A stretch of DNA of 64,000 nucleotides, taken from positions 26,738-90,737 of IMG/VR virus record IMGVR_UViG_3300041955_001975, one strand, 5' to 3'. Source of the DNA: a virus (Duplodnaviria > Heunggongvirae > Uroviricota > Caudoviricetes). Below, one piece after another: positions 14,939 to 63,818 of the stretch. The first letter of the stretch is position 1. The number at the start of each line of letters is the position of its first letter. The notes beneath the pieces are model-generated. The model was not told the DNA's origin and searched no databases. It saw nothing but the letters and a program-made list of their open reading frames with translations. A program made the position numbers and the translations under genes.

Positions 14939-14968
14939 CGGTCCTCTCCAGATTACGTAACGCATGAG

Positions 14969-16502: not shown

Positions 16503-16715
16503 TCACCTCACGTTTTGCAGCAGAAAGTCCACAAGCCCCTGCGGGTTAAAACGAAGCTCGTCGCCCGTGTCCAACACAATCATGCCGGGCGGAAAGATGA
16601 CCCTCGCAACACCATTGACCGCAGTGATGGTCGTACTCGCCAGGTCGATGCTCTCGATCCGTTCACCGTCACGCCAGTGTTCAATTGCGCATTTCATCGG
16701 AGCCTCTACATCCAA
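16503..16715 (-). CDS. hypothetical protein
   Basis: ORF only; 70 aa. Confidence 0.3.
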   Translation of the reverse strand: MDVEAPMKCAIEHWRDGERIESIDLASTTITAVNGVARVIFPPGMIVLDTGDELRFNPQGLVDFLLQNVR

Positions 16716-19022: not shown

Positions 19023-19234
19023 GGTGTTCCTTCGTCAGTCATAGGCCCGTGCATCGAGGGGCTTGTCGTGAGACTCTGGATTCTGCCTGGCCTTCCGCCG
19101 GTTACGTCGATGGAGGGCCTTCTTGAACTTGCGCTTTCGACCCGCCGAGCCCACGGCACGGGCAGCCTTCTTCCAAGCGTGCGGGCGTCCCATCGGTGCT
19201 TGAAGCCTCCTTGACGGGGGAGGCAGCGGGATCA

Positions 19235-40918: not shown

Positions 40919-40927
40919 ACACCTCGC

Positions 40928-44228: not shown

Positions 44229-47200
44229 CTAAAGGATCGAGGAGCCGCGCCGAAGTTCCCGGCGGAGTTCCGTGGCGATCGACCTGCCCGTTTGACGAGC
44301 CGAGCCGCCGCCGGTGACACTGACGTTGATGTCGCCCACGTTGGTCACGCTGCCGCCGTGGGTGTGATAGCTGGGCCTGACCCCAGCGTTCATGGCCGTC
44401 AGTTGCGAGGAAAACTTCCGTGCGCTGCCGGCGTTGATGACCATCTCGCCGGGGCTGAGCATGGCGCGGATGGTGTCCGTGCCGCGAGGGAAACCTCCAC
44501 CGGCGAGGAAGTTCCAGATGGCCCCGCCCCGGGCCTGTGCCGTCTGGGGATTCAATTGGCCGGCGACGATCGGCACCTGCACCCCGTCGTAAGCGGCTTT
44601 CAGGATCTTCACCTGCTCGGCCCAGGCCGCGGTCCTGGCAGCGGCCTTGGATGTCTCCGCCGCCGCCTGACTCGTAGTAGCGCCAACATCCTTGGTGGCG
44701 TCTGCGAGGTCTTGCGAGGCGGACACTCTCCCCGGCAACGTATCGTTCAATTGCCGCAAGTGGGCCTCGCCGGCGGCTGCGGGCCCTTGGTCTTTGTCCC
44801 TGATCTGCTGCTGAGTCTTCCGACGTTGCTCTTCGAGTTCCGTAATTCTCTGGAGCCGCTCGACGTTCGTACTGATGAGCCCCTCGGTCTCGCCAGCGCC
44901 GCTAAGAGGAAAAGCGTTATATCCTTGGGCCTTTGCCTTCCAGGCTTCCACCTGGTCCTTCGTGATCGTCTCGGGCATCGTGGACGCATTGCGGATCTGT
45001 CCCAAAGTCCGATACCGATCCTCCATCATCTCGCGCGTTTCCCTGGGACTGTCGCCGGTGAAGATGCTGCCGAAGTGGATCTTCGTCATCTCCCACATCC
45101 GCTTGTCCCAGCGATTGACGTTGACCTCGCTGCTCCCTTGGACAAGCTCCCTGGTCTTGTTGATCTCACGCTGTAGGTTCTGTTCGTTGGCCTTCAGGCT
45201 CTGGTAATCGGTGCTGGCCTTCTGCTGGTCCTTCAGCTTTTGCTCCGCCGCCGCGCGGGCCTGTTGCACCGTCTTGTCCTTCATCTCCTCCATGCTCAGG
45301 CCCGCAACCTTGGCGTAGATCGGAATGATGCCCAGGCCGTGCGTGATCTGTTCGTTCAACTTCGCCAGCGTCCCGGGGGCCGCTCGCATGTCCCTGATCT
45401 GCACGTCGGTGATGCCGGCCTTCATGTTGTCCGCCATCTTGCTCCGCAAGCTGGCATAGTCCAGAAGCTTGGAGGCGTCCCACTTCTGGCTGAAGGCCAG
45501 CTCCAGGAAGGTCGAGGTGTCCTGGGCGAAGGCCGCAGCATCCTTGGTCCGCTGCTCCGCGCTCTTCGGGTTGCCCTTCTCGTCGTACTGATTGGCTTCC
45601 TTGGCAATCTGCTTGGCCAGGACCCGCATCTGGTTGGCCTGCTGCTCCTCCTTGGCGGCGGCCTGAGCGGCGGCCTGGGCCTGCTCCGCTTTGACCTTGC
45701 GAATGGCCTCCTCGTACTGGAGTCGCGTCCCCAGGAGGTTCTCGATCGTTTGCTCGGCCTCCTCCTGAAGCCGGATGTCCCCGGACGCCTTGGCCGCGGA
45801 AGCGGCCAACTGGGCGTATGCCTCCGCCCGCTTGAGGGTCAAGTCCGCCTTTTCCTGGTTCTCCGGCGAGGCCAGGTCCGAGCTGTTGCCGGCCTCATAG
45901 CCGCCGATCAAAGCGGGAGCCCCCGCCACGCTGAACGCCAGGCTCTTGGACCGCGCCAGATAGGCCGCCTCCTCCGCACGCGCCGCCTCCTTGGCGTCCT
46001 TGTACGCCGCGGCCTTCTTCTTCAAGTCAACATCAAACCGCGTGTCGGCCAGCTTCGTTTGAAGATCGAGGGTCCTTTTCTGGGACTTCTCGATGTCCTT
46101 CTCGTCTTCCTTCGCCAGGTCACGCAGTAGGTGGGAGCCCTTTTCCTTGGCGGAGATCAATTGCTCCATCGTGGACTTGGTGCTGGCGACCAGGTTTCCG
46201 TCCGACTTCTTGGCGGCGTCAAGCTCGTCGTCGTAGACCTTGCTGACCTGCGCGATGTACTGGAGACCGCGCTGCACGATCTTGCCGTACAACTCGTCGC
46301 TTGCGCGAATCCGCTCCCGATTGGCCGCGTCCTTCTTCTTGATCTCCTCGTCTTGCTCGGCCTCGAACTGCCTGGCGGCCTCCGCCGTCGCCTCGTGCAT
46401 CTTGGTGTCCACAAAATTGAAAGTCGCCCAGCCCGCCAAGACGGTCATCGCCCCCGAAGCGGCAAAACCAAAAGCCTTCATCTCGAACGTGGCGGCCTTG
46501 GCCTGCATCGAGGCGAGGGCAAAATAAGTCCCGATCGCCGTGATCGCGCCTACGAAAACCGTCGCCGGTCCGATGACGGCGCTGATGGCGGACTTGAGCG
46601 TGCCCACGCCGCCCACGAAATCCACGATCTTGGCGAGGCTCTGCACAAGACTCTCGCCGAGGTCCGTGGCGATGTAAGTCTTCAGGTCATTGATTTCTTT
46701 GTTGAGCCTGAAGGCGTCGGTGGCCTTGAACTTCGCACTCTCACTCTCCAGCAGCGCCGCACCGGACTTCCTCATGTTGTCGTAGCCGGCTGCCGCCGCA
46801 TTGGCATTGGGTCCCGTGTCCGTGAGGATGGCGTTAAGGGCCCGGACATTCGGGATCAGCTTCAGAATGCTCTGGAGATCGTTGTCCTGGCTGTTGGCCA
46901 GCGCTTGCAGCGCACCGATCAGGCCGCCCGACATGGCGATGAACTGCTCCCCGGAGTCGGCACCGAAGTTCTTCTTGAGGGCCTCGTGCAAGGGTCCAGA
47001 ATCCTTGGCCAAGGCCACCATGACGCTGCGCAGGGAGGTGATCGCTTCTGCCGGCTTGACGCCGGCCACCGTCAGTCGCTCGGTCGATGCGCCGACATCA
47101 TCAAGGCTGACGCCCAGGGCGTGGGCCGTGGACATGACCTTGCCCCAGGTCGCGGCGATCTCCTCGCCACGGACCCGGCCGTCCCGGATCACCTGGAAGA

Positions 47201-48059
47201 ACTTGCCCGCGATAACCGACGATTGGCTGGCTTCCATGCCGTAGGCGCGCAGCCCCCCGGTGACAAGATTGGTCGCCGTATTGAGCGACATGCAGCCCAC
47301 CCTGGCCAGGTCCGTTGCAGCGCTCATGACCTGGGCGCGGTCGGCGGCATTCGTATAGGCGGCGGATACGGCCTGGTACTCGGCCTCCACCACCTGTCCC
47401 ACGGGAAAGGCGGAGGCACTAGCCAGATCGGCGGTCTCCTTCTTCAAGGACTCAATGGCCCCGATGGGACCACCCATAATGGCATTCAGTTCGGAAATCC
47501 GCGTGGAGAACTCAAGGTTTGAGGACACCGCCTCCTGAAAAGCGTCCCGGACCATGCTCAGGCCCCGCACGATGGCCTGGGTGAAGACCACGCGCGACAG
47601 CGTCCGCAGGCTGACCAGGAAATCTAGTGACGCATCCTTCGCGGGCTTGACGGCCGGAGCGATCGGCGCAAAGCCGCCGGGAACCACTTTCCCGATGTTC
47701 TCGCCCTCACCGGCAATGTCCCGCAGGTCCTTCTTCATCTGCTCCGCCACGCCGGACGGAAGCCAGAGCTTCGACGACGGCGCGGGGGCCGGAGGAACGA
47801 TCGGTGCGGCCGGCGCTTGCGTGTGCTTACTCATGGATGAGCTGAGCTTCTCCATCGCAGAAGCAGCACTGGTGGCATACGTGGCCATCTCCTTGAGGTG
47901 GCCGATGGTCGCACTGGCACCACTATTCCAGGTAGACATGGCCTGGCCGAGGGAACCGAAGCGGCCCTCCAACTGCCCCATCTGCTCGTCCATCTTGGAG
48001 AGCGCAGCCAGGGCATCGCTCACGTCCCAGCCCAGCTTCTGAATGAGTTCATCTGCCAT
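44229..48059 (-). CDS. tail tape measure protein
   Basis: 1276 aa, strongly alpha-helical A/E/K/Q-rich composition, positioned between chaperone-like ORFs and tail-tip genes. Confidence 0.75.
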   Translation of the reverse strand: MADELIQKLGWDVSDALAALSKMDEQMGQLEGRFGSLGQAMSTWNSGASATIGHLKEMATYATSAASAMEKLSSSMSKHTQAPAAPIVPPAPAPSSKLWLPSGVAEQMKKDLRDIAGEGENIGKVVPGGFAPIAPAVKPAKDASLDFLVSLRTLSRVVFTQAIVRGLSMVRDAFQEAVSSNLEFSTRISELNAIMGGPIGAIESLKKETADLASASAFPVGQVVEAEYQAVSAAYTNAADRAQVMSAATDLARVGCMSLNTATNLVTGGLRAYGMEASQSSVIAGKFFQVIRDGRVRGEEIAATWGKVMSTAHALGVSLDDVGASTERLTVAGVKPAEAITSLRSVMVALAKDSGPLHEALKKNFGADSGEQFIAMSGGLIGALQALANSQDNDLQSILKLIPNVRALNAILTDTGPNANAAAAGYDNMRKSGAALLESESAKFKATDAFRLNKEINDLKTYIATDLGESLVQSLAKIVDFVGGVGTLKSAISAVIGPATVFVGAITAIGTYFALASMQAKAATFEMKAFGFAASGAMTVLAGWATFNFVDTKMHEATAEAARQFEAEQDEEIKKKDAANRERIRASDELYGKIVQRGLQYIAQVSKVYDDELDAAKKSDGNLVASTKSTMEQLISAKEKGSHLLRDLAKEDEKDIEKSQKRTLDLQTKLADTRFDVDLKKKAAAYKDAKEAARAEEAAYLARSKSLAFSVAGAPALIGGYEAGNSSDLASPENQEKADLTLKRAEAYAQLAASAAKASGDIRLQEEAEQTIENLLGTRLQYEEAIRKVKAEQAQAAAQAAAKEEQQANQMRVLAKQIAKEANQYDEKGNPKSAEQRTKDAAAFAQDTSTFLELAFSQKWDASKLLDYASLRSKMADNMKAGITDVQIRDMRAAPGTLAKLNEQITHGLGIIPIYAKVAGLSMEEMKDKTVQQARAAAEQKLKDQQKASTDYQSLKANEQNLQREINKTRELVQGSSEVNVNRWDKRMWEMTKIHFGSIFTGDSPRETREMMEDRYRTLGQIRNASTMPETITKDQVEAWKAKAQGYNAFPLSGAGETEGLISTNVERLQRITELEEQRRKTQQQIRDKDQGPAAAGEAHLRQLNDTLPGRVSASQDLADATKDVGATTSQAAAETSKAAARTAAWAEQVKILKAAYDGVQVPIVAGQLNPQTAQARGGAIWNFLAGGGFPRGTDTIRAMLSPGEMVINAGSARKFSSQLTAMNAGVRPSYHTHGGSVTNVGDINVSVTGGGSARQTGRSIATELRRELRRGSSIL

Positions 48060-49354: not shown

Positions 49355-50503
49355 TTAGATGGGCTGCGGCGAGGTCTGCGGAACCCGGGTCACGACGGCC
49401 TGGGTGATGTTGCACTTGCCGGCCACGGAAATCATGGCCTTGGAGTAGTCGATGGCCCGCGACTCCACGCGGAAGTCCGGGAAGTCCGTGTACTCGATGT
49501 CCGCCCCGTAGCAGGGCGGCACGTACTCGATCGTCACATCGACGGCGTGAGGCTCGCACGGATCGGGCCCGGAGGTGACCCACTCGGCCGCCCCATTGAT
49601 GCCCTTGAGCGCATCCATCGGGCAAATCTGCTCGCCCGTGCCCGTGGTGATGTGCTCGTAGACGCACTCGAACTTCATCTCCACCGGGACCTCATTGCCC
49701 TCCCGCACGGCGTCCAGGTTGCCGCGCTCAAGGTCGTACTTGTACTCCAGCTTCTCGGTGTAGTCGCAGTTGCCTTCGCCGATCTTGATCTCCAGCCGCT
49801 GCGAGTAGAACGAGATCAGGTCGTCGTCGGCGTAGGCGGAGGTCGCGGCCCCCAAGGCCGGCGAGAAGGTGATCGCCGTGGTCACGGTATTGGGAGTCGG
49901 CACGACGCCGGTCTGCACGCTGGCGATCGTCACCACGGTGCAGCCCGTGGGGCCAGTGAGGTCCGCGCCGTTGGCCGTCATGAGGGTCTGGGGCGCGTTG
50001 CCTTGCAGGCCCTTGAACTCGACGATCCATGCGCCGGGCACGCCGGTCACGGCCCAATCCGAAGAGGAGAAGTTGGTGTCCGCCGCCACCAGGGCCGCGA
50101 GCACGTCCGTCGTGGCAGCGCTGTAGGCGATGGGTGCGGTCGTGAAGCCGTAGCAGGACAAGGTAAAGGTCCCGCCCGTGGGCGCAGCCGCCCCGGTGGC
50201 CAGCGTGACCGACTGCTTGGCGTCCGCGCCCGCGTTCGTGCCCTGGGTGCGGCCGGTGACAACGTGGACGGTTGGACCCGTCGAGCCCAGCGCCTCGGAA
50301 GCCAGCGTGAAGCGCGCCCCCACGGGAATCTTCGTCGGTGCCGCCGCGCGGGGAATGTTCACGTTGTCCACCGTCAGCGTGGATGCGCCCTGAACCGGGG
50401 CCACAGCGGCCTGGGCGGTGGGCAGAGTGACGCCGTCGACGCCGGGCAGGCCGAGCCCGTCCTTGAGCGTGATCGTGCAGTAACGCAGTTCAATACGTGC
50501 CAT
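49355..50503 (-). CDS. putative major tail (tube) protein
   Basis: 382 aa, Thr/Ala/Gly/Val-rich, upstream of the chaperone-TMP block in canonical synteny. Confidence 0.4.
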   Translation of the reverse strand: MARIELRYCTITLKDGLGLPGVDGVTLPTAQAAVAPVQGASTLTVDNVNIPRAAAPTKIPVGARFTLASEALGSTGPTVHVVTGRTQGTNAGADAKQSVTLATGAAAPTGGTFTLSCYGFTTAPIAYSAATTDVLAALVAADTNFSSSDWAVTGVPGAWIVEFKGLQGNAPQTLMTANGADLTGPTGCTVVTIASVQTGVVPTPNTVTTAITFSPALGAATSAYADDDLISFYSQRLEIKIGEGNCDYTEKLEYKYDLERGNLDAVREGNEVPVEMKFECVYEHITTGTGEQICPMDALKGINGAAEWVTSGPDPCEPHAVDVTIEYVPPCYGADIEYTDFPDFRVESRAIDYSKAMISVAGKCNITQAVVTRVPQTSPQPI

Positions 50504-51871: not shown

Positions 51872-51903
51872 CGCCTTGCCTCCCTTCGTCGAAAGAAAGG
51901 CCG

Positions 51904-51930
51904 CCCCGCCCGGATACCGTCCGGGCGGGG
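51904..51930 (-). terminator. candidate intrinsic terminator downstream of the major capsid gene
   Basis: 10-bp GC stem CCCCGCCCGG / CCGGGCGGGG with a 7-nt loop, followed on the minus strand by CCTTTCTTTCG. Confidence 0.4.
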
Positions 51931-51977
51931 CAAGCCTCTTCGTTGCGAGACACACCGCGGCAGGTCCAAGGACCCGC

Positions 51978-53432
51978 TTAGCCTTGCAGCACGACTGCCA
52001 GGTTGGTGTCGAGAATGGCGACCCCGGCGAGGATGTCGAGGTTGACGATCGTTCCGCCGTTGACCACGCTGTACTGCATCGAGACCCGCATGGCGATGTC
52101 GTTGTAGACACCGACGTGCGCCAACACGCCCATCGCGTTGTTGGGGATGGCCAGGGGGCGGGTGACCAGGGCGATGGCGTTCCGGTGGAAGGCCAGATTC
52201 ATGGCCCCGGCCGGCCCGGGGAAGCAGAGGTCGCCGGCGTTCACCGTGTTGTCCAGCGGCCGATCCAGGAGGATCGTCTGGGTGTTGCTGCCGCTGTAGG
52301 TGGACTCGATCACCGTGTAGGTCGCCCGGCCGCTGCCGGTGCCGAAGGCCACCAACTGGCCGATGGACGGCGCGTTGGTCCAGCCGGTGACGGGAATCCC
52401 CTGGGACCAGCCGGCGAGGTAGTTGCTGCCGGCGGCCACCTTGCAGGACTCGTAGACCGTCAAGACCGCCCCGGCGGACGTGGCGTACTTGTTGGCCTCG
52501 TTCAGGGTGATCGCCGTGGTGGTGCCGCTGGTCGGGTACGGTCCGCCCGTGACGGTGGCCGCGGTGATGACGGTCGGCTGATCGTTGCCGGCCACGACGG
52601 CGAAGCAGCCCACGTCGGCGGCGATGGCCAGGGTCACGGTCTGGCTGGGACCGGCAGGGGCCGTGCCGAAGACGGCGGCGGCCAGGGCGTTGGTGACCGC
52701 GCCCACGGTCACGTCGGACTTGCTCGCCGACGCGCTATTGACGTTCTGATCCATGTAGGTATCGAACCCGAGAATCCGTCCCAGGGTCGCGCTCTCCAAG
52801 GATGTGCCGAAGTCACCCCGTTGCTGGGCGGCGATGAACAGCTCGTTCTTCAGCAGCGCGGTCTCGCTGACCGGGGCCAGGACCAGGTTGCGGCCCTCCA
52901 GCGGGGCCTTGTTGACGTTCAACTGCTCGCGGGCCTCCAGCACGTAGTCCTTGCTGTTGGCGGCGTTGAGGTTCGCCAGCCGGCCGACGCGCTGCGTCGG
53001 GCCGCCGAGGAAGCCGTGGACCTGGCCGAGGACGGCGCGGTCCACCGAGCGGGCGATGGTAATCATGCCGGGCCGGAGGTAGATGTCCACCAGGTCTTGG
53101 AAGGACTGGCTGGCCTCGCCGTCCTTGATGGTGAAGTTGGCGTAGAACCACTGGTTCAACGGCACCGGGACTTTGGTCGCCGAGGCGTCCTGCGGCACCA
53201 GGGGCACGCCGTCCGACTTGCGGCTGATGGCGAAGTTGCCGGGCCGGCGGGTGTTGACCACGTCGCCAAACTGGCGGATCTCGTTCTCGAAGTCGCGGTG
53301 GACCAGGTTGGCGATGACCATGTTCTCCTGGAGGATGGCCAGGCCCTCATTCGCCCACAGCTCGGGGATGAAAGCGCTGTTGTCGTTGTCGAAGCAGACG
53401 AAACGAGCGCGGGCGGCGTACAACAGATTCAT
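51978..53432 (-). CDS. major capsid protein
   Basis: 484 aa immediately downstream of the scaffold gene. Gly/Ala/Thr/Val-rich composition typical of HK97-fold coat proteins. Shares its N-terminal 15 aa with the scaffold. Confidence 0.6.
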   Translation of the reverse strand: MNLLYAARARFVCFDNDNSAFIPELWANEGLAILQENMVIANLVHRDFENEIRQFGDVVNTRRPGNFAISRKSDGVPLVPQDASATKVPVPLNQWFYANFTIKDGEASQSFQDLVDIYLRPGMITIARSVDRAVLGQVHGFLGGPTQRVGRLANLNAANSKDYVLEAREQLNVNKAPLEGRNLVLAPVSETALLKNELFIAAQQRGDFGTSLESATLGRILGFDTYMDQNVNSASASKSDVTVGAVTNALAAAVFGTAPAGPSQTVTLAIAADVGCFAVVAGNDQPTVITAATVTGGPYPTSGTTTAITLNEANKYATSAGAVLTVYESCKVAAGSNYLAGWSQGIPVTGWTNAPSIGQLVAFGTGSGRATYTVIESTYSGSNTQTILLDRPLDNTVNAGDLCFPGPAGAMNLAFHRNAIALVTRPLAIPNNAMGVLAHVGVYNDIAMRVSMQYSVVNGGTIVNLDILAGVAILDTNLAVVLQG

Positions 53433-53575: not shown

Positions 53576-54457
53576 TTAGACGCTGCGGCGCTTGTCGCGG
53601 CGGAGTCCGAGCAACTCAGGGTTCTTTGCTCGAATGTCCTGGTACTGCTGAGGCGTGAGCTTTCTCACGTCCAGCTTGCCGCTGGAACCCGGCGCAATGC
53701 CGCCGGTTGCTGAACTCGCACCGATGCCGGAGACGACACCGGACTTGAACAAATTGCCGTAGCGGGCGGGCAGCTCCTTCATCCGCTTCACGGCCGACTC
53801 GGGCGTGTGGAGGGTCACGCTGGGCTCGCCGGTGTTGGGGTCCGTGTCGGGGAAATCGACCACGACCTTGAACTTGCCGGTGCCCTTCTTCGTCTTCTCG
53901 TCGAGTTCCTCCGAGATACGGGTCATGCCGCGGAGCATGGTCACGACCTGCTCCGGCTGCCAGGATTCGCCGGTCACGGCGGCGTCTTGCAGCGCCCGCT
54001 CGACCATGCTCTCCCGGTAGCGGTTCTCCCACAGCACGCGGCCCTTCTTCTCCTCCTCCACCTTGGTGTTGAATTGCTCTTCGAGCTGCTTCCGTTCGTG
54101 GGCCTGCTGTTGCTCGCGGGTCCTCGTCTCCTTCTGCATGTCTTCCAACCGCTGGGCAAGCTGCTCGCGCTCTTGCGTCGTCAGATTCTTGCTGGTCAGC
54201 GTCTCCTCCAAGGTCTGCTGGATCTTGGTGATCTGCGCCTGGTGCTTCCTGCGGTCCTCGGCCAAAAGCCGGTTCAGGTCGTCCTGAGTGAACTTGGGCG
54301 GCTCCTGGAGGTTCAGTCCGGCGGCGGCGGCAGCGGCGGCAGCGGCCTGGGCCTTGGCCTGCTCCTGGGCTTGAGCCTGGGCCTGGGCTTGGGCGGCGGC
54401 AGCGTCCTCGGCGGCGTCGAAGCAAACGAGACGGGCGCGAGTGGTGTAACGATTCAT
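53576..54457 (-). CDS. scaffolding protein
   Basis: Coiled-coil Q/E/A-rich (AQAQAQAQEQAKAQAAAAAAA, EQQQAHERKQLEEQ), placed upstream of the capsid gene. Confidence 0.6.
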   Translation of the reverse strand: MNRYTTRARLVCFDAAEDAAAAQAQAQAQAQEQAKAQAAAAAAAAAGLNLQEPPKFTQDDLNRLLAEDRRKHQAQITKIQQTLEETLTSKNLTTQEREQLAQRLEDMQKETRTREQQQAHERKQLEEQFNTKVEEEKKGRVLWENRYRESMVERALQDAAVTGESWQPEQVVTMLRGMTRISEELDEKTKKGTGKFKVVVDFPDTDPNTGEPSVTLHTPESAVKRMKELPARYGNLFKSGVVSGIGASSATGGIAPGSSGKLDVRKLTPQQYQDIRAKNPELLGLRRDKRRSV

Positions 54458-54705: not shown

Positions 54706-55275
54706 TTAGCACACGCGGCTCAGACGCACGGCGTCACCATCCCGCAGGAACGGTCGCAGCAGGTTCCACGCAACGGCGTTGGGCACCATGTTCAGTAAAT
54801 GTTCGATCGGCACCTGGCCGCGCTCGTAATGCGTCCGCACCTCACCGTAGCCGTGGGCCGTGACCTCAAGATTCTCCAATTCCATCTCCGGGTCTTTGCC
54901 GTCCAGCAGGCTGTAGGCAATCTCGTAGCAGGCCCGGAGAATCGCGGCCGGCACGTCGGTGTCAGAGCCACGCGGAAACTCCAGCGGCTGTTGCTCTTCA
55001 GCGGCCCGAATCTGTGCCTTTCGCTGCTCGCAAAGGATCGTTGACTCGAAGGTGTCGCCTGGGGTGGCCCACAGCGGTGTTAGCGACTGTTTCAAGAGCC
55101 AGACCGTGTGCCGGTCTCCCTTGAAATTCAGGTTGTCGATGATCTGTGTGGCAGCATAGAGGGCCTTGGGCTTGTCGGCCGGCTCGGCCTCCCGCCATGC
55201 GTACTCATGGAGTCGCATGGCGAAATAGGACTCCGCCTCATCGACCGAGCCGTAGTAGGTGAAGTCCAAGGCCAT
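54706..55275 (-). CDS. hypothetical head-module protein
   Basis: 189 aa between the glycosyltransferase and scaffold genes. Confidence 0.3.
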   Translation of the reverse strand: MALDFTYYGSVDEAESYFAMRLHEYAWREAEPADKPKALYAATQIIDNLNFKGDRHTVWLLKQSLTPLWATPGDTFESTILCEQRKAQIRAAEEQQPLEFPRGSDTDVPAAILRACYEIAYSLLDGKDPEMELENLEVTAHGYGEVRTHYERGQVPIEHLLNMVPNAVAWNLLRPFLRDGDAVRLSRVC

Positions 55276-56438
55276 TACCGCCTCCGTAACCAGTCAAGGT
55301 CTTTTCGGTTATCGTGGGCGGCGTACCAGCCATCGCCCCACAGGTCGGTGAGCATCTCGAAGTATTCCTGATAGGTGTGCCGCAGTCGGTCCATCGAATA
55401 GTTGGCCACGGCCCGCTCGTGGATGTACAGCGGGTCGAGTTCGCAAGCGTGCTGAGCGGCCCAAGCGAACTGGTCGAGCGTGCGGCAGCGGTATCCCGTG
55501 CGGCCATGCTCCACCGTTTCGGGAAAGGCTCCCCAGTCGGTGGTGATCGCCGGCGTGCCGGCCATCTGCGATTCGATGGCCACCGCGCCGAAGGGTTCGA
55601 TGTAAGTCGTGGGCACGAAGGTAGCGATGGCGTTCTGGTACAGCCTCGCCCGCTTCTCGCCGGTGGCAAAGCCCATGTACTCCAGGTTGTCGCCCTCGTA
55701 GACCTCGCCATCGGCACAGTGGATGCGGTTGCCTTCCACCCTGACGCAGCCCTGGCCCGCGATCTTTAGCTTGGCTCCGAGGCGTTTACACGTCTCGACG
55801 GCGACGTGGATTCCCTTCCGCTTCACCAGCCGGCCGAGGTAGAGGTAGTAGTCTCCCTTCACGGTTTGCAGCGGGTAGTCGTCTGGGTTGAGGTAGTTGG
55901 GAACCACGGCGTCGTAGAAATGCCCGTCCGGGTCGAAGCCGCCCTCGGCACCCCAAATCTTGTGCATGTGGGCGTAGGACTCGTAGACCCGGTAGCGCCC
56001 CGGCTTTCGCGGCAACAGTCCGTTGTAGCCCGCCCCGTACTCGACGACCATCATGTTGCTTTCCACCATCGCCACCAGCGGCAGGCTCAGCGAGCCGGTG
56101 ATGATGCAGAGGAAATCCCCCTGTCGCTTCCGTTGATTGATCTCGGCAGTGGCGCGACTATGGAACAACCGCCAGTAGGGCGCTCGCCCGGTCCAATCGA
56201 CCTCATAAAGGGCATGGGGGTCGTAGGGGCCGAAGAAGCCTTCCTGCTCCTTGCGAGACAAAACAGGCACGTCCTCGCACCACTGGCGAATGTCGCTTCC
56301 TTCGACGCCATAGTGGATGCACTCGTGGCCCAGGGACGCCATCATTTGGATCAGATGGCGGGCCTTCATGCTAAACGCGCAGGCGCTGTGTTCCATACCC
56401 AAGGTTGTATGCGGAAGCCCTACCACGTGGAATCGCAT
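55275..56438 (-). CDS. glycosyltransferase family 4 (GT-B, group 1)
   Basis: Group-1 signature YLGRLVKRKGIHVAV and the E-x7-E region EPFGAVAIESQMAGTPAITTDWGAFPETVEHGRTGY. Confidence 0.7.
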   Translation of the reverse strand: MRFHVVGLPHTTLGMEHSACAFSMKARHLIQMMASLGHECIHYGVEGSDIRQWCEDVPVLSRKEQEGFFGPYDPHALYEVDWTGRAPYWRLFHSRATAEINQRKRQGDFLCIITGSLSLPLVAMVESNMMVVEYGAGYNGLLPRKPGRYRVYESYAHMHKIWGAEGGFDPDGHFYDAVVPNYLNPDDYPLQTVKGDYYLYLGRLVKRKGIHVAVETCKRLGAKLKIAGQGCVRVEGNRIHCADGEVYEGDNLEYMGFATGEKRARLYQNAIATFVPTTYIEPFGAVAIESQMAGTPAITTDWGAFPETVEHGRTGYRCRTLDQFAWAAQHACELDPLYIHERAVANYSMDRLRHTYQEYFEMLTDLWGDGWYAAHDNRKDLDWLRRR

Positions 56439-56499
56439 CAGTTTTCCTTTGATTGCAGAGTGAAAATGCAGACAAAGTGCTCAACGCGCCGGGCCGCGT

Positions 56500-58653
56500 C
56501 TAGTCCAAGACTGGAGGACCGAGGAGAATCATCAAGGTGGTCGAAGTCAGGGCGATGCCTACCGGCGCAGTGTAGTCCGATGCACTTGGCGGCCCAATAA
56601 GTAGCTCTCCTGAGACTGTGTCCACGTAGTACCAAGCGCCGGGCGTCAATGAAGCACCGTTAGAAGTGACCGCTTCCCATTGCGCCGCAGTCAAGGTCAA
56701 CTGCCCCCACACTGCCACACTGCCGGTCGCATTATTGGCACAGGTTGCCGTCATCAGGCCGACAGGGAAGTTGTTCTTTTCGAGACTGCTACTGGCTACG
56801 GCCGCAAAGAGACCCGTGCCTATCTCGTAGTACACCACCTGGCCTATCGTCAAACTGCCGCCGCTGCCATTGAGAAGACTGACTGTTACCAAAGTCGGTC
56901 CAGACACCCCGGTTGCTCCGGTAGCCCCGGTGGTTCCAACCCCAGTCGGGCCCGTAGGCCCCGTGGCTCCAACTGCACCGCCGCTGCCTGCCGGGCCGCT
57001 CGGACCACTCGGTCCACTGGGTCCGGTGTTGCCTGTCGTACCTGTTGCACCTGTCACTCCCGTATTGCCCGTTGTGCCTGTTGCACCTGTCGTGCCCTTA
57101 GCCCCGCTCGGACCGCTGGGTCCACTCGGGCCCGTCGCGCCTGTGGCTCCGGTGACGCCGACACCTGTCGGGCCAGTCGCGCCCACATCGCCGTCGCTGC
57201 CTGCGGGACCGCTTGGGCCGCTGGGTCCACTCGGGCCTGTCGCGCCTGTAGCTCCGGTGACGCCGACACCGGTCGGGCCAGTCGCGCCCACACCGCCGTC
57301 GCTGCCTGCGGGACCGCTCGGGCCGCTGGCTCCACTCGGGCCCGTCGCGCCTGTAGCTCCGGTGACGCCGACACCGGTCGGGCCCGTCGCGCCCACACCG
57401 CCGTCGCTGCCTGCGGGACCGCTCGGGCCGCTGGCTCCACTCGGGCCCGTCGCGCCTGTGGCTCCGGTGACGCCGACACCTGTCGGGCCAGTCGCGCCCA
57501 CACCGCCGTCGCTGCCTGCGGGACCGCTCGGGCCGCTGGCTCCACTCGGGCCCGTCGCGCCTGTGGCTCCGGTGACGCCGACACCTGTCGGGCCAGTCGC
57601 GCCCACACCGCCGTCGCTGCCTGCGGGACCGCTCGGGCCGCTGGGTCCGCTCGGACCCGTTGCGCCTGTAGCTCCGGTGACACCGACGCCGGTCGGGCCA
57701 GTCGCGCCCACAACGCCGTCACTGCCTGCGGGACCGCTCGGGCCACTGGGTCCGCTCGGACCCGTTGCGCCTGTAGCTCCGGTGACACCGACACCAGTCG
57801 GGCCGGTCGCACCCACACCGCCATCGCTGCCTGCGGGACCGCTCGGGCCGCTGGGTCCGCTCGGACCCGTTGCGCCTGTAGCTCCGGTGACACCGACACC
57901 AGTCGGGCCGGTCGCGCCCACACCGCCATCGCTGCCTGCGGGACCGCTCGGGCCGCTGGGTCCACTCGGCCCAGTCTCGCCTGTGGCTCCGGTGACGCCA
58001 ACACCAGTCGGGCCGGTCGCGCCCACATCGCCGTCACTGCCTGTGGAACCGCTCGGGCCGCTGGGTCCGCTCGGACCCGTCGCGCCTGTAGCTCCGGTGA
58101 CGCCGACACCTATCGGGCCAGTCGCGCCCACACCGCCGTCGCTGCCTGCGGGACCGCTCGGGCCGCTGGCTCCACTCGGGCCTGTCGCGCCCGTGGCTCC
58201 GGTGACGCCGACACCAGTCGGACCAGTGGCCCCAGTATCGCCCGTGCTGCCCGTGGCTCCACTCGGTCCTGTTGCACCAGTGGGCCCGGTCGAACCCATG
58301 ACCCCTGTGGCCCCGATCCCGGCAACATCACCTGGAATGCCCTGGGGGCCAGTGGGACCCGTCGCGCCTGTAGCTCCGGTGACGCCAGCGCCAGTCGGGC
58401 CGGTAGCACCCGTCGGTCCATAACGACCTAAAGGTCCAATCGGCCCCGTCGCGCCTGTGGGACCTGGCACCCCCGTGGCACCTTGAGTGCCCGTCGCGCC
58501 TACGACCCCTTGTATGCCCGGCGCGCCAGTTGGCCCTGTAGCGCCCGTAACCCCTTGAGGTCCGGTCGCACCGGTAGACCCAGTCGCCGGCCCTGTCGGA
58601 CCAGTGGGGCCTTCTTCACCGGGAGTGCTCATATAGAAATCCATGCTTCGCAC
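56500..58653 (-). CDS. collagen-like triple-helix repeat protein with globular C-terminal domain
   Basis: About 550 aa of Gly-X-Y repeats, including eleven 35-aa units ([35 protein letters not shown]). Non-collagenous C-terminus of about 150 aa. Confidence 0.75.
57080..58230. repeat. 105-bp tandem repeat array (about 11 units) inside the collagen-like gene
   Basis: Unit ...gcccacaccgccgtcgctgcctgcgggaccgctcgggccgctgg... recurs at 105-bp spacing (for example 57286 and 57391). It encodes the 35-aa Gly-X-Y unit. Confidence 0.7.
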
Positions 58654-58668
58654 TCCCGTTCACGGCTA

Positions 58669-59577
58669 TTACTGCGGCGTGAACACCTGCCAAGTCAAGT
58701 TACCTGCACCGTCTGCACTCAAGTAGTAGCACTTATTGGTTCCCACAGGGGCGGTCGGCAAACCGGCACTCGGGCCAGTTGGACCGGTGGCCCCTGTCGC
58801 ACCGGGAGGACCGCCGCTCGGGCCACTCGGGCCAGTCGGACCCGTCGCACCAATCTGGCCTGTCGCGCCGCGTGGACCAGTCGGACCAGTGGCTCCAGTC
58901 AAACCTGTGTCACCGACATCGCCGACATCGCCTTGCGGTCCAGTCGGGCCGTAGGGACCTGTTGGACCCGTCGCGCCAGTGACTCCCGTTGAGCCTGTCG
59001 CGCCTGTGGCTCCCGCACCAGTCGGCCCAGTTGCGCCGTCAGAACCAGCCGGTCCCGTCGCGCCCGTGGCTCCCGTGGCTCCCGCGCCCGTTGGCCCTGT
59101 CGGGCCAGCAGGACCTGTCGGTCCTGTGGCACCATCAGCGCCTGTCAGGCCGCTCGGTCCAGTAGGTCCGCCACTCGGGCCAGTCGCACCGATCGGACCG
59201 CTAGGGCCGGTCGCGCCATCGGGTCCTGTCTCGCCGATCTCACCTTGCGAACCCGAAGGACCAGAGGGACCTTGCGAGCCAGACGGCCCGCTTGGGCCAG
59301 TGGCACCATCAGCCCCAGTTGGACCAGAAGGACCATAGAGACCCTGCGAGCCGGAGGGCCCCGTGGCCCCTGTCTCGCCTTGTGGGCCGCTCGGTCCAGT
59401 CGCGCCAGTGGCTCCCGCGCCGGTCGGGCCCGTGGGGCCGATCGACCCGGTCGGACCAATGCGTCCAGAAGGACCGGAAGGGCCAGTGGCTCCAGTCGCC
59501 CCAACCGGGCCGCCCGATGGGCCGCTCGGGCCAGTCGGGCCTTGAGCCCCCAGAGGTTCGCTGTACGTGATCCCCAT
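58669..59577 (-). CDS. collagen-like Gly-X-Y repeat protein
   Basis: [26 protein letters not shown]... throughout. Short C-terminal domain ...[22 protein letters not shown]. Confidence 0.7.
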
Positions 59578-59579
59578 GA

Positions 59580-59900
59580 CTAAATCCCCAACCAGTTGAG
59601 GTTCTGACCGGGAGTCCCGGAGATGGCATAGATCAGCGACGGATCGTCCACCGGCAGTTCGAGAATGCCGCCGGGAACCAGCGGCATCCCGCCCGTGGCG
59701 CTTGAGTCTGCGGTGACGCTCGCCAACCCGATGTAGATGATGTCCGTGTTGGGCACCGAGTCCGCCGCGCCGGGCGACCGCAGCAGCAGGCCGCGCACCA
59801 GCTCCACCGAGTTCGGCGACACTTGGACCGCAGACGTGCCAACCGTGGTGTTGCCGTACTTCAGGTCGCCAGCCGGCGAAGTCTCTTTGACCTCAAACAT
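59580..59900 (-). CDS. hypothetical head-module protein
   Basis: 106 aa between the portal and collagen-like genes. Confidence 0.3.
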
Positions 59901-59911
59901 GGTTGCAGTCC

Positions 59912-61840
59912 TTACTCTTGATTGTTCTTACCCTTGCCCCGCACGCGGGGCTGGTGATCGTCGGCCAGCGTCGGGTCCTGACTGATCGTCTTCTCCTCGA
60001 CGGGGGCCGTGTTCGGGTCCGCCGAGAGATCAGGCAGACCACGCGCCGCAGGGTCCGTTCCCGCGACACCGGGCACTGCGCCTCCGGCACCCTTGCCGGC
60101 GACCTTTTGCTGGGCTTGCAGCACGCGGATCGCGCGGGCGGCATGATCCTTCGCGGCCTGGATGTGCTCGTCGTCGTCAAAGCCAAGGGCCATCGAGCCA
60201 ACCTTTTCGCCACAGAGGCCGTTGACAACCGCCTGGATGATCGTGTTGACATCGCTGGTGGTATACGGGCAGGCGTCGATCTCCTCGTAGATGGCTTCCA
60301 GATCAGCCACGCTAACCTTGCCGCCGAGCAACGCCGTCACGACGCACTTGGCCAGCTCGCGCTTGATCTTGCGGCCAGGTACGGCCGTCATCAGCTTGAC
60401 CAGGTTTTGTGCCTCGGTCACGCGATCGGCATCGCTCTTGAGGCTGTACACGTCCGGGTACTTGATCGTAGCGACCTGCCGATTGGCCGGGTTCCGCTCC
60501 TCATAAGCGGCCCAATGCTCCGCGATCTGCCGCTCGGCGTTCTCCAGGACCAGGCCGATGTAGGACAGCCCCGCCTCAAGGCCCTGGTTGTCCACGATCT
60601 TCGACTCGGCCGACTGCCGGCTGGCAAGACTGGCCACGGCCAGGTTGACGAGCTTCCTGATGTCGTCGGCCAACCGATCCTGCAACTCCATCGACGTTCG
60701 CAACGGATCGGACGGCGGTGCAATGAAACTGGGCGCATTCAGGCCCTTATCATAGGACCGGCCGTGGGTCGGGCCGACCTCGATGTCAACGTCAGCGCTC
60801 GGCTGGCCGCCCGTAGTGGCCGTGCCGTCCGTCGCCGCCGGCTTCAAGTGAGCACCGCTGGCCCGGAGGTCGCGCTGTTCGACGTAGAAGGGGAAGTTCG
60901 CCTTGAGGGCGTAGTTCACGTCCGAGCTGCCGAGGTTCAGCAGCGCGATCTGGTGGTTGACGACATCCTTAATCATGCTGTCGCCGATGTCGAGCAGGAT
61001 GAAGGGAATCCGCCGTAGTTCCAACTCGATGACGCCGCCCGGATTGCCGTCGCGGTCCACCGGGTTGCCGTCCGTGTCAAGGAACTGCAAGTTGACGAAC
61101 CCCGTCTCGCGGTTGATCCACAACATGCGGAACCGCTCGACCGTCGTGGTCGGCAAGTAGGTCCGCTGGTCGAAGTTCAACACCACGTCCCGCAACAAGA
61201 TCGCCTGAAACTCAGTGGGCTCCTCGGGCTTCGAGCACGTCCAGCTCAGGATGTCCTCGATAGGATAGAAGTAGACGTAAGGCCGCTGCTCGCGCGATTG
61301 GGCCTCGGCCAGGGTCACTTCCCCGGTCAAGGCCGGCGCATCAACGAAGATGCCCACACGTCCCATGATGAGCAGATCGGTCAGAACCTTGATGCCGAGA
61401 AAGGCATTCATGTTCAGGCCGCGCTTGTCCACACCCAAGTTCAACCCGGCGACAGCTTCCTGGTAGGATGTCGTACCGCCGCGGCGCGTGATGTCACGCA
61501 TCCGCTGGAAAATGGCGTTGCGAACGTCGTTGATCGCCAGCCGAGCAAAGGCCGGAATGGGCGTCATGTTGAGACGTTCATTGAACTCCTGATCGTCCTC
61601 ACGCCGGGAGAACTTGGTCAGGTAGAGCTTGCGAAAGTATTCCCCGCCGTTGTAAGTGATCCGCCACTTGCGCCAGTCGAGAAGACTACTGAGATAAGAC
61701 GGATGCCTTACCTCCACTATGTTAGTGATGTATTCAACTACCAAAGCGGCGGCTCCTTTTGCAGAGGCCCGTGGATAGCGGACAACCGCTTCGAGCCGGG
61801 TAGTCTTCAGGGCACTTGGAAACAGGGCGGCGGCAGGCAA
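59912..61840 (-). CDS. portal protein
   Basis: 642 aa immediately downstream of the terminase region. Size and position are canonical. Confidence 0.55.
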   Translation of the reverse strand: MPAAALFPSALKTTRLEAVVRYPRASAKGAAALVVEYITNIVEVRHPSYLSSLLDWRKWRITYNGGEYFRKLYLTKFSRREDDQEFNERLNMTPIPAFARLAINDVRNAIFQRMRDITRRGGTTSYQEAVAGLNLGVDKRGLNMNAFLGIKVLTDLLIMGRVGIFVDAPALTGEVTLAEAQSREQRPYVYFYPIEDILSWTCSKPEEPTEFQAILLRDVVLNFDQRTYLPTTTVERFRMLWINRETGFVNLQFLDTDGNPVDRDGNPGGVIELELRRIPFILLDIGDSMIKDVVNHQIALLNLGSSDVNYALKANFPFYVEQRDLRASGAHLKPAATDGTATTGGQPSADVDIEVGPTHGRSYDKGLNAPSFIAPPSDPLRTSMELQDRLADDIRKLVNLAVASLASRQSAESKIVDNQGLEAGLSYIGLVLENAERQIAEHWAAYEERNPANRQVATIKYPDVYSLKSDADRVTEAQNLVKLMTAVPGRKIKRELAKCVVTALLGGKVSVADLEAIYEEIDACPYTTSDVNTIIQAVVNGLCGEKVGSMALGFDDDEHIQAAKDHAARAIRVLQAQQKVAGKGAGGAVPGVAGTDPAARGLPDLSADPNTAPVEEKTISQDPTLADDHQPRVRGKGKNNQE

Positions 61841-61843
61841 CGA

Positions 61844-62116
61844 CTAGAAGTCGCAACAGTCGTGGAGCAGCTCGGAAAGACGCCTGTAGGTGTAGCCGTC
61901 GTAGGCCGAGAGGCGGTAGAGCACTTCCTGGAACGCATTCGGGTAGGTGTCCGCTGACGGCGATGCGGGCGGTGACTGCGCGGCCAAGGCGGCCGTGAGC
62001 GCCGTCTCCTCGGCGGCCAGCGCCGAGAGAAGCAGATAGGCAACGTCACCGCCGTTGTCCTGGCTGCTGCTGTCCAAAGCGAGCGTGTTGAGAACCGTCT
62101 GGTAGCACTGGGTCAT
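61844..62116 (-). CDS. hypothetical protein between terminase and portal
   Basis: 90 aa, lambda gpW-like position. Confidence 0.3.
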   Translation of the reverse strand: MTQCYQTVLNTLALDSSSQDNGGDVAYLLLSALAAEETALTAALAAQSPPASPSADTYPNAFQEVLYRLSAYDGYTYRRLSELLHDCCDF

Positions 62117-62144: not shown

Positions 62145-63818
62145 TTAGAGGAACTTCTTGATGTCCTGCCCCGTCGTCATCGACGCCGCAAATGGCAGTG
62201 CAATCTCCGCGTAGTTCAGGCTGTGAGCAAAGTGGTCGGGGCCGGTCTCAACAAAAGTGGCTACAGGGTTGCCCGTCTCATCCTTCTCGTAGGTCCGCAC
62301 AAGCGACTTGAGGTGCTCACGGTACTCAAGCGTTATGTCGCGCGGGAGCATGATGCGTGGCGGCTTCGTCTTAAAGCGGCCGAGCGTGCAGCTCAGCCAG
62401 TTGGTGCGGTCCACCGTCGCCATCGGTGCCCCGGTCTCTTCCTCGGTCACGGAAACTTCCTTGGCCGTCTGGCCCCGCCGATAGCGGCACAACCAGACGT
62501 AGCCGTGAAACCTGCGTGCGAAGCGGCGGGCCTCATTGATCTGCGGGTCGGCGTCGATCACGCAGGCCAAGACCTGCCATTCACGCATCAGATCATTGAG
62601 GAAAGCCCAATCGTCTTCGAGAAACTTGCCGAACCAGAGGAGCTTGGACACGGCGGCGACATTGATGTCGCTGCTCATTACGTCAACGAACCACTCGCAC
62701 ACCGAGACGTAATTCCACTTGCCCTGGTCCACTCCCATCGTGATGCAACGGCGACCGCCCGTAGCCGGCCGCGGATCGTTGAGCGTGTGATTCTTGATGG
62801 CCGCATCAATCATCTCGTCGGTGACCTGAGCACCGGTGCCGATGAAGGGCAGACCCAGCTTCGAGTTGTGAAACTCCTTGTTGGCGGCCTCGTCGCCCTG
62901 GCCACGGTGATAGGCAATCACCAGCTCGCCCGGCGACACCGTGCTGCTGTACAACTGGTTGACGTAGAAGCCACGCGATTCCTGGGGATCGACGTTCGTA
63001 GCGGTCGCCACCCACTCCGCGGCGGCCAGCCATTGCGGCTTGGCCTTGTGTTCCAGCGCGTGCTGGCATTCCTTGCACTTGAGGAACGATTCCTTGCATC
63101 GCGGGTCTTGAACCGACTCGCCGATGATCTCAATGCAGTCAGGCCAGGTCAGCTCCGTCAATCGTGAACAATGCGGGCACCTGAAGAAGAAATGTTCCTG
63201 GGTGCTCGACAAGAAGAGTTTGTGGATGCCGTACTTCGGGACGGTCGGCGTCGAGATCGCTATGACGTGCTTCTGGACCTGACCGGACAGGCGTTCCAAA
63301 GCCAGCCAGACGGCCTTCTGCTCCATTTCGTCCAACTCATCCAGCACCAGTTCGGACACCGGGATGGACTTCAAGTTGGAGTCGCCGCGCGAACCGCGGA
63401 TATAGAGCGAATTGATGCCGGTGGATTTCAGGCCGACCGTATTGGTGTCAGTGAAGAGATTCTTGAGGTAAGGGCTGAGATTCAGGGCCCCGGAGAACCT
63501 GGCCTTGGAAAAGTCGCTCGCATTCAAGGTCGTCGGCAGGACGTAGAGCACGTCGCGCTTCAACTGATCGAGCGTGAAGAAGGCACGATTGATTCCGGTT
63601 TCCGTCACGCCCAACTGGGCAGCTTTCATCGCCACCGTGAAAGCCGATTGAGAATCATGGATCGCACGGCACCAGGGGTGATGATAAAAGCTGTAGGGTC
63701 CCTCGAAAGGCGACCCCATCACCCGTCGATGTTCAGCCCACCGAGAACAAGTCTTTACCGTCCTGCTCCGCACGCCTTCCATGAACGTCAGCTTCAGATC
63801 GTCGAGGAGGCTGTTCAT
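62145..63818 (-). CDS. terminase large subunit
   Basis: N-terminal ATPase with Walker-A-like AMKAAQLGVTETG and Walker B LVLDELDEM. Has CxxC pairs and a C-terminal nuclease-sized domain. 557 aa. Confidence 0.7.
   Translation of the reverse strand: MNSLLDDLKLTFMEGVRSRTVKTCSRWAEHRRVMGSPFEGPYSFYHHPWCRAIHDSQSAFTVAMKAAQLGVTETGINRAFFTLDQLKRDVLYVLPTTLNASDFSKARFSGALNLSPYLKNLFTDTNTVGLKSTGINSLYIRGSRGDSNLKSIPVSELVLDELDEMEQKAVWLALERLSGQVQKHVIAISTPTVPKYGIHKLFLSSTQEHFFFRCPHCSRLTELTWPDCIEIIGESVQDPRCKESFLKCKECQHALEHKAKPQWLAAAEWVATATNVDPQESRGFYVNQLYSSTVSPGELVIAYHRGQGDEAANKEFHNSKLGLPFIGTGAQVTDEMIDAAIKNHTLNDPRPATGGRRCITMGVDQGKWNYVSVCEWFVDVMSSDINVAAVSKLLWFGKFLEDDWAFLNDLMREWQVLACVIDADPQINEARRFARRFHGYVWLCRYRRGQTAKEVSVTEEETGAPMATVDRTNWLSCTLGRFKTKPPRIMLPRDITLEYREHLKSLVRTYEKDETGNPVATFVETGPDHFAHSLNYAEIALPFAASMTTGQDIKKFL

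Follow-up and report, generated by a model that had tools for sequence, protein, structure and literature searches.

What does a glycosyltransferase (GT) do among the head genes of a phage, next to two genes for collagen-like proteins? The question is raised by a stretch of 64,000 nucleotides (nt), positions 26,738 to 90,737 of the IMG/VR virus record IMGVR_UViG_3300041955_001975 (Caudoviricetes), which is referred to here at its full length as the window. The GT probably O-glycosylates Thr and Ser residues of the neighboring collagen-like proteins, which would be fibers of the virion. This reading comes from comparison of gene neighborhoods. An earlier note on the same DNA, made from the letters alone, had proposed that virion fibers are glycosylated by this enzyme, and the proposal is supported by the linkage of the two gene types across unrelated phages and bacteria and by their co-variation among relatives. 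The genes concerned are on the minus strand and run from the portal gene through p106, Col302, Col717, GT, Ad1, and the scaffold gene to the major capsid gene.

59912-61840, minus strand: portal protein (phrog_145, 2.5e-37), the upstream edge of the insertion slot
59580-59900, minus strand: p106, 106 amino acids, no family match
58669-59577, minus strand: Col302, 302 amino acids (Pfam Collagen, 2.9e-31)
56500-58653, minus strand: Col717, 717 amino acids (Pfam Collagen, 2e-53)
55275-56438, minus strand: GT, 387 amino acids (PF00534, 5.5e-19; phrog_3408, 2e-67)
54706-55275, minus strand: head-tail adaptor Ad1, 189 amino acids (phrog_477, 1.2e-16; PF20557), the downstream edge of the cassette
53576-54457, minus strand: scaffold-like protein (phrog_6663, function unknown, 1.2e-06)
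51978-53432, minus strand: P22-type major capsid protein (PF11651, 6.8e-20; phrog_283, 5e-47)

The GT is a group-1 enzyme, as the earlier note had recognized. It matches PF00534 (Glycos_transf_1) with 68.8 bits (cut-off 26.4) and PF13692 with 57.6 bits (cut-off 27), and phrog_3408, named 'glycosyltransferase', matches it over its full length. The EPFG...E-x7-E signature is E281-P-F-G-A-V-A-I-E289. E281, E289, R203, and K208 do not vary among 39 homologues, and their conservation is at least 90% among 33 distant ones. The AlphaFold2 (AF2) model has a mean confidence (pLDDT) of 91.8 and a predicted TM-score (pTM) of 0.90, and all of its top Foldseek matches in the PDB are GT-B/GT4 enzymes with TM-scores of 0.65-0.81. 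The best is the alpha-1,2-glucosyltransferase Tll1591 (E 4.5e-21); the tetrahydrobiopterin alpha-glucosyltransferases (BGluT), AviGT4, BshA, and MshA are among the other leading matches. As modeled, the GT is an enzyme of the GT-B fold and the GT4 family, presumably of the retaining type, and by analogy with retaining GT4 enzymes an alpha linkage is predicted. In a sequence search against solved structures, only the C-terminal donor domain aligns. Across the family, from phages to bacteria, both Rossmann domains contain conserved residues, and those of the N-terminal domain include H4, Y43, R103, D108, E133, and Y138. The GT belongs to a distinct and uncharacterized GT4 subfamily, phrog_3408.

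Two Gly-X-Y collagen-like genes are present, as the earlier note had read them, with Pfam Collagen matches and 182 and 84 triplets. Col717 has its 182 triplets in a repeat region of ~575 residues followed by a 130-residue, non-repetitive non-collagen C-terminal domain, and Col302 has 84 triplets and a C-terminal tail of 32 residues. The non-collagen N-terminal segments of both are only ~9-11 residues long. The start of Col717 is more likely the ATG at 58644, which is preceded by a GGGAG ribosome-binding site, than position 58653. In Col717, the Y position is Thr in 45% of triplets and Ser in 21%, and the X position is Pro in 38% and Ala in 31%; in Col302, Y is Thr in 46% and Ser in 20%. Thus, both proteins have Thr or Ser at 66% of Y positions, while charged residues make up 4-5%. 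Lys occurs twice in the 717 residues of Col717 and once in the 302 residues of Col302. This near-absence of Lys excludes hydroxylysine-linked glycosylation and leaves O-glycosylation of Thr and Ser as the plausible chemistry.

The collagen reading frames were also considered as artefacts of GC-rich sequence since a gene picker based on G+C content at third codon positions (GC3) preferred open reading frames (ORFs) on the opposite strand. This was rejected on the Pfam scores, the conserved C-terminal domain, the synteny, and the occurrence of the same pair in phages of 40-45% G+C, where GC-rich repeats could not create spurious open frames. The C-terminal domain of Col717 is 30-43% identical in relatives, and no Pfam or PHROG match covers it; the corresponding domain of BclA is a C1q/TNF-like trimerization domain. 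Against 5.8 billion proteins it found only two matches, one of them a truncated gene call. PHROG matches of Col302 and Col717 are mostly to 'tail fiber' families and run through the repeat region only.

Several features of the collagen genes stand on their own. Tandem Repeats Finder reports an array in Col717 (57104-58234, minus strand) with a period of 105 nt, 10.8 copies, 93% matches, and a score of 1849. Its 35-residue unit consists of 11 Gly-X-Y triplets and a two-residue 'VT' break, so a triple helix of Col717 would have evenly spaced interruptions. The copy number of the array is probably unstable, and public contigs break within it. In two JGI metagenome contigs (locus handles L163, 435-827, and L164, 847-1239), the Col717 orthologue is called as a 130-residue 'hypothetical protein'. 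Both contigs start within the collagen repeat, and an internal start was chosen although the frame is open to the contig end; through such calls, collagen genes of this kind are under-annotated in databases. GC3 is 0.57-0.63 in the collagen genes and 0.78-0.94 in their neighbors, with a normal 0.81 in the GT. The collagen genes spread their Thr evenly over all four codons (ACA plus ACT, 53%, against 9% in the other structural genes). Horizontal origin is a possible cause of the low GC3, as is selection to spread tRNA demand or to reduce repeat identity.

The evidence that joins the GT to the collagens is their linkage far beyond this phage. Relatives of the GT were collected from viral contigs (171 stretches confirmed, 80 loci kept) and from 185,579 species genomes (131 relatives in bacterial genome contigs, 80 loci examined), giving a pooled set of 160 loci and 35 GT clusters at 70% identity. 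A collagen-like ORF lies on the same strand within 3 kb of the GT in 26 of the 35 clusters, nearly always just upstream. Collagen-like ORFs have a density of 18.7 per 100 kb over the 3 kb that precede the GT, compared with 0.8 at 3-8 kb downstream. Approximately 35 of the 80 viral loci are of the window's own lineage and have portal, p106, one to three collagen-like genes, GT, Ad1, scaffold, and capsid. The other ~45 have no other structural protein detectably in common with the window, and their GTs are 31-46% identical to that of the window. In most of these, the GT is still closely preceded by a collagen-like ORF on its own strand. In one of them (L036), a collagen protein of 1853 residues ends 54 nt ahead of the GT, and a nucleotide-sugar epimerase is encoded two genes upstream of the collagen gene; L055, L060, L062, L063, and L067 are further pairs in unrelated phages. 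The earlier note had called GTs rare in phage structural modules. This does not apply to the kin of phrog_3408, as most of the 80 viral loci pair the GT with a collagen-like gene.

Among cultured phages, the best matches of the GT are in the Synechococcus myoviruses S-CAM7 and ACG-2014f (35-36% identity). In S-CAM7 (L082, NC_031927.1, 3078-10574), the two genes directly upstream of the GT, gp014 and gp015, are annotated as hypothetical but encode ~197 and 46 triplets with Thr at 40-59% of Y positions. Next comes the GT itself, gp016, followed by a weakly GT1-like protein (gp017) and a 2-oxoglutarate-Fe(II) (2OG-Fe(II)) oxygenase of the prolyl 4-hydroxylase (P4H) type (gp018, PF13640). Lying beside a tail-fiber gene, gp014-gp018 look like an unrecognized collagen-maturation cluster. 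The start of gp016 seems to be annotated ~93 nt too far downstream; the match runs from 8001 and the coding sequence from 8094.

Bacterial relatives of the GT are 37-46% identical over the full length and are found in Bacillota/Clostridia, Saccharibacteria, Chloroflexota, Anaeromyxobacter, and Planctomycetia. Of the 80 bacterial loci, 55 have a collagen-like ORF with 15 triplets or more, which is usually Thr-rich at Y. In 49 loci, it is on the GT strand within 400 nt of the GT and nearly always upstream, and a same-strand collagen ORF near the GT is the usual layout in Bacillota. The pairing holds from 31% to 68% G+C. In the complete chromosome of Anaeromicropila herbilytica (L135, NZ_AP024169.1, 7057-9137), a collagen-GT4 pair is found between YetF/DUF421 and haloacid dehalogenase (HAD) hydrolase genes and adjoins a prophage-like region (ImmA/IrrE, tail sheath, LysM). 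In bacteria, the pair may belong to the spore or the cell surface, or it may be cargo of phages. Full-text literature searches found no description of a linkage between GT4 and collagen-like genes in phages; papers on pelagimyophages and Nanopelagicales phages name both gene types without connecting them.

The second line of evidence is co-variation. Relatives were sampled by portal homology, independent of the GT, and 48 loci had a readable interval from portal to Ad1. GT and collagen are both present in 8 of these and both absent in 38; one locus has the GT only (L013) and one has a collagen only (L201). Fisher's exact test gives p = 2e-7, or ~1e-4 without duplicates, uncorrected for phylogeny. 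The L201 collagen (10105-11598), the only slot collagen without a GT, is of a charged GDR/GDK/GxQ type and has no Thr or Ser at Y. The 38 relatives that lack the cassette keep all head genes and the same tail genes. The distance from portal to Ad1 ranges from 12 nt to 6.8 kb among the relatives, and in these 38, Ad1 follows the portal/p106 region without a cassette. In three loci (L010, L034, and L035), the GT and a collagen-like gene are found upstream of the terminase gene, and portal and Ad1 adjoin directly. Given the variable slot and the pattern of presence and absence, the collagen and GT genes form an accessory cassette and are not core head machinery.

The cassette genes are closely packed or overlap. 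The stop codon of p106 is 2 nt from the ATG of Col302, Col302 and Col717 are separated by 15-24 nt depending on the start chosen for Col717, and Col717 and the GT by 61 nt, with an AGGAAA ribosome-binding site ahead of the GT ATG. The GT stop and the Ad1 ATG overlap by 1 nt (TAATG), and Ad1 is translationally coupled to the GT. The earlier note had placed the GT directly between the scaffold and capsid genes and the collagen genes. It does adjoin Col717, but Ad1 separates it from the scaffold gene, whose label is itself based on position and on an Ala-, Gln-, and Glu-rich, coiled-coil-like sequence. A scan for promoter-like and terminator-like sites found none above chance inside the cassette. 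The only convincing terminator in the structural region from 51 to 64 kb is a hairpin on the minus strand (51901-51933; 14-bp stem, 11 G-C pairs, T-rich tail) that lies 45 nt past the major capsid stop. From the short spacers, the overlap, and the lack of an internal promoter or terminator, the GT is predicted to be expressed together with the late head genes. Judged by eye, the N-termini of the GT, Col302, and Col717 have no obvious hydrophobic signal-like stretch, so any modification would be cytoplasmic.

Gene identities, the GT fold with its catalytic motifs, the operon structure, the conserved linkage, and the co-variation are established. From these, we infer which acceptor the GT modifies, with what linkage and from which donor sugar, and also that the fibers enter the virion, where on the particle they sit, and what they do for the phage. 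In the proposed sequence of events, the GT and both collagen genes would be transcribed and translated along with those for portal, adaptor, scaffold, and capsid. Working in the host cytoplasm, the enzyme would use a host nucleotide-sugar, most plausibly a uridine diphosphate (UDP)-hexose or UDP-N-acetylhexosamine, and the nearest structures, which use UDP-glucose (UDP-Glc), are a weak hint to the donor. It would O-glycosylate Thr and Ser at the Y position of G-X-T/S triplets. The collagen-like chains would trimerize into fibers that join the virion, and the position of their genes in the operon suggests the capsid or neck. Glycosylated Thr at Y stabilizes the triple helix of Riftia cuticle collagen, and modification of this type would explain the stability of a collagen that is poor in charge and lacks hydroxyproline. 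The glycan may thus substitute for hydroxyproline and charge pairs, both stabilizing and hydrating the triple helix, and the sugar-coated particle surface may serve in adhesion or shielding.

Several findings weigh against this picture. The argument is one of guilt by association. Nine of the 35 GT clusters have no nearby collagen ORF, and some of the collagen-less GTs are in sugar-gene clusters (L070, L072) or T4-like baseplate regions (L076-L079). One slot has a GT and no collagen gene (L013), and two loci carry Thr/Ser-rich collagen genes without a GT (L213, L221). The solved structures closest to the GT act on sugars or small molecules rather than proteins, and the protein O-glycosyltransferases of GT4, SdgB and GtfA, rank lower in the Foldseek list. 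The window proteins scanned include none for sugar-nucleotide synthesis. Moreover, prokaryotic collagen-like proteins often have Thr at Y, at 31.6% for all bacteria and 48.3% for Gram-positives (PMC8968730), so the Thr richness is permissive and not discriminating.

The alternative that survives best also has the GT glycosylate the collagens but makes them tail or side fibers for host recognition whose genes just happen to lie among the head genes. We regard this as possible, though on the doubtful side. The 'tail fiber' PHROG matches of both collagens would fit, but these involve the repeat region only. Position elsewhere fits as well: the pair follows a minor tail protein in L060, precedes tail genes in L036, and lies between baseplate and tail-fiber genes in S-CAM7. 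In the window, however, the collagen genes are between portal and adaptor, which points to the head or neck, and a full set of tail-tip and fiber candidates is encoded past the tape measure gene. The cassette is dispensable in the 38 relatives with the same tail genes, and N-terminal segments of ~9-11 residues are too short for a typical baseplate-attachment domain. That head modules do encode collagen-like capsid binders is demonstrated by SPP1 gp12.

It is unlikely that the target of the GT is another virion protein, for example the major capsid or tail tube protein, and that the collagen genes are unrelated neighbors. The GT is near the adaptor, scaffold, and capsid genes and coupled to Ad1, L013 has it without a slot collagen, and some mycobacteriophages do glycosylate the C-termini of capsid and tail-tube proteins (PMC12619734). 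Yet relatives with a 59-79% identical capsid protein and a related tail tube mostly lack the GT (38 of 48), whereas the GT family tracks collagen genes into unrelated phages and into bacteria without such capsid genes. The C-terminus of the capsid protein also has no Ser/Thr-rich tail.

A role at the host envelope is similarly improbable. Here, the GT would modify a host polysaccharide, either lipopolysaccharide (LPS) or a cell-wall polymer, in superinfection exclusion or lysogenic conversion, or it would build a free glycan. Such a role is the usual literature assumption for phage GTs (PMC7029224), and generic database names ('glycosyltransferase involved in cell wall biosynthesis') repeat it. 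GT4 enzymes are typical of polysaccharide synthesis, the weak NCBIfam matches of the GT are to Agl16, exopolysaccharide (EPS), and LPS enzymes, and a close relative is in a 698,710-bp Pirellulales contig, probably as a prophage. However, those NCBIfam matches are all far under cut-off. The GT is embedded and coupled in a late structural operon instead of being a moron with its own promoter and terminator, it is tightly linked to and co-varies with collagen-like genes, and among the window proteins scanned there is no flippase, polymerase, or sugar-synthesis enzyme to partner it.

Glycosylation of phage DNA bases against restriction is very improbable: DNA glucosylation is the classical role of phage GT-B enzymes (PMC10202952; PMC12619734) and three DNA methyltransferases attest to an investment in DNA protection, but the window proteins scanned include no hydroxymethylase or base-hypermodification gene, the GT is in the structural operon and not in the replication module, and its homologues adjoin collagen genes in bacterial genomes, including the A. 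herbilytica chromosome.

The small gene ahead of the collagens may belong to the attachment of the fibers. p106 has no Pfam, PHROG, or NCBIfam match. Its AF2 model is a jelly roll (pLDDT 88), for which nothing significant was found in the PDB (best E 5e-3; nucleoplasmin, cupin, and Ena-like jelly rolls). In the BFVD, it matches many uncharacterized small phage proteins (best 9e-9, TM-score 0.83); matches from Gordonia phage Bakery, Mycobacterium phage Eureka, and Pseudomonas phage tf (two) are included. Related loci have p106-like modules either directly ahead of variable long proteins or as N-terminal fusions to them; such modules are found at L186 (4792-6870), L216 (4740-8808), and L201 (9491-12742). 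This suggests that p106 is an adaptor or anchor for exchangeable fibers, and its membership in the module is uncertain.

The rest of the structural region is that of a siphophage, and the window is part of a siphophage genome of more than 64 kb.

62145-63818, minus strand: large terminase (GpA_ATPase and nuclease; phrog_675, 2e-94)
61844-62116, minus strand: ORF of 90 amino acids, no evidence for a function
49355-50503, minus strand: tail tube (weak PHROG major tail protein matches)
44229-48059, minus strand: tape measure (PF10145 and several PHROG tape measure families)
42595-43560, 40928-42610, and 39263-40918, minus strand: tail-tip/fiber candidates with N-termini in common, the last two with ConA-like lectin domains
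37628-39226 and 33919-37098: further fiber candidates past the tape measure

The three adjoining tail-fiber-like genes of 39263-43560 have a related N-terminal segment of ~100 residues, and two carry a C-terminal ConA-like lectin (Laminin_G_3) domain. The three look like paralogous receptor-binding proteins with different binding domains. The remaining window encodes phage replication genes: PolA, a DUF5906 primase-helicase, a ligase, an SNF2 helicase, and exonucleases. The three DNA methyltransferases (one D12-class, two of N6/N4 type) are at 2257-3015, 5022-6071, and 22419-23657, two ParB-like proteins are at 13295-14158 and 25451-26359, and one tRNA-Asn (GTT) is at 14968-15040.

A megablast search of the window segment 51000-64000 against 50,697 phage records found no near-identical record. 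The nearest relative (L081) is in the 698,710-bp contig of a Pirellulales genome bin, probably as a prophage, with identities over the matched segments of 89% for the GT, 99% for the capsid protein, and 100% for the scaffold. No integrase was found among the window proteins scanned, though this relative is inside a bacterial contig. With a Pirellulales relative this close, the host is most likely a Pirellulales planctomycete. The L081 cassette is longer (~8.4 kb) and has more collagen-like genes. L081 also has three genes with weak or faint matches to GIY-YIG homing endonucleases (11737-12411, 16581-16997, and 19223-19900) among its structural genes: past Ad1, past p170, and near the tail-tube gene. 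In the window, Ad1 and scaffold are only 248 nt apart with no ORF between them, and comparable ORFs are likewise absent from the other two sites.

Bacterial collagen-like proteins that carry glycans, glycosylated phage virions, and capsid decoration by collagen-like proteins were each already known. What seems new is the combination, a probably dedicated GT4 subfamily that travels with Thr/Ser-rich collagen-like genes as a mobile cassette in phages and bacteria, for which no earlier description was found. Taken further, the pattern may mean that phrog_3408 and its bacterial relatives are a hitherto unrecognized family of widely mobile O-glycosyltransferases dedicated to collagen-like proteins, forming a two-part module with Thr/Ser-rich collagens in which glycosylated Thr replaces hydroxyproline; we hold the chances of this broader reading to be about even. 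Its hosts would be phages of Planctomycetota, Cyanobacteria, and others, together with bacteria of the Clostridia, Saccharibacteria, and Chloroflexota.

Phage GTs are routinely labeled as DNA-modification or host-surface enzymes, and this subfamily gains a specific and testable alternative role. If collagen glycosylation is correct, phage virion glycosylation, which is documented mainly in mycobacteriophages, would extend to aquatic and soil phages of many phyla, and many environmental phage particles, cultured cyanomyoviruses included, would carry sugar-coated collagen fibers. It would also offer a route to stable phage and bacterial collagens that lack hydroxyproline and charge pairs, as well as a compact two-gene system for glycosylated recombinant collagen, and it would bear on phage adhesion, particle stability, and antigenicity. 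Because the cultured Synechococcus phage S-CAM7 has the same gene pair, the idea is directly testable.

Known systems resemble the cassette in different parts. For the enzyme, the closest are Tll1591 (7FG9, 8X3Q) and the UDP-Glc:tetrahydrobiopterin alpha-glucosyltransferases. They share the GT-B fold and the C-terminal nucleotide-sugar domain with E-x7-E, and the sequences align over residues 187-362 (E 8.6e-25, 16-22% identity), but the N-terminal acceptor domain is unaligned and their acceptors are glucans or pterins, not proteins.

Giant viruses, which the earlier note had cited as a precedent, differ in mechanism. Mimivirus encodes collagen-like proteins and its own glycosylating enzymes (L230 and R699; LH3 and GLT25D in animals) (PMC8968730; PMC9546862). 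The mimivirus and animal systems hydroxylate Lys and glycosylate the hydroxylysine, whereas the window collagens are nearly free of Lys, with one or two residues each, and neither the cassette nor the window proteins scanned include a 2OG oxygenase. The mimivirus and animal enzymes have GT-A folds, unlike the GT-B/GT4 enzyme of the window.

In mycobacteriophages of the Che8 type, phage GTs glycosylate structural proteins of the virion and the glycans shield the particle, as summarized in PMC12619734. There, the sugars are reported from the C-termini of capsid and tail-tube subunits rather than from collagen-like fibers.

For the fibers, the parallel is SPP1 gp12, a collagen-like decoration protein that attaches as a trimer to the capsid surface (PMC7602432). 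It is collagen-like, non-essential, and encoded within a siphophage head module. Decoration and head-fiber proteins such as gp12 and phi29 gp8.5 are encoded in the head module and are dispensable, and the same is true of the cassette. SPP1 gp12 is tiny, with ~8 Gly-X-Y repeats, and is not known to be glycosylated or to have a companion GT. The window collagens, in comparison, have 84 and 182 triplets and a C-terminal domain of 130 residues, and they are putative capsid binders.

A bacterial analogy, Thr O-glycosylation of BclA-type proteins, fits better. The collagen regions of BclA are O-glycosylated (PMC12357932), and in C. difficile, SgtA, encoded beside the gene of the collagen-like exosporium glycoprotein BclA3, modifies Thr (and Ser) in GPT repeats with beta-O-linked N-acetylglucosamine (beta-O-GlcNAc) in vitro (PMC7157674). 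SgtA is of the GT-A type with four tetratricopeptide (TPR) repeats (PMC7157674), and on this ground the window GT was rejected as a homologue; GT-B/GT4 and without a TPR match, it is analogous to SgtA. The SgtA linkage is beta, whereas alpha is predicted here, and sgtA is upstream of bclA3, while the window GT is downstream of its collagen genes. Nevertheless, both have a Thr-rich collagen-like protein, with G-X-T repeats in the window, encoded next to a dedicated GT, with which it would be co-expressed and which would act in the cytoplasm. In both, the product would be a glycan-coated fiber on the surface of a dormant particle, the spore in one case and the phage virion in the other.

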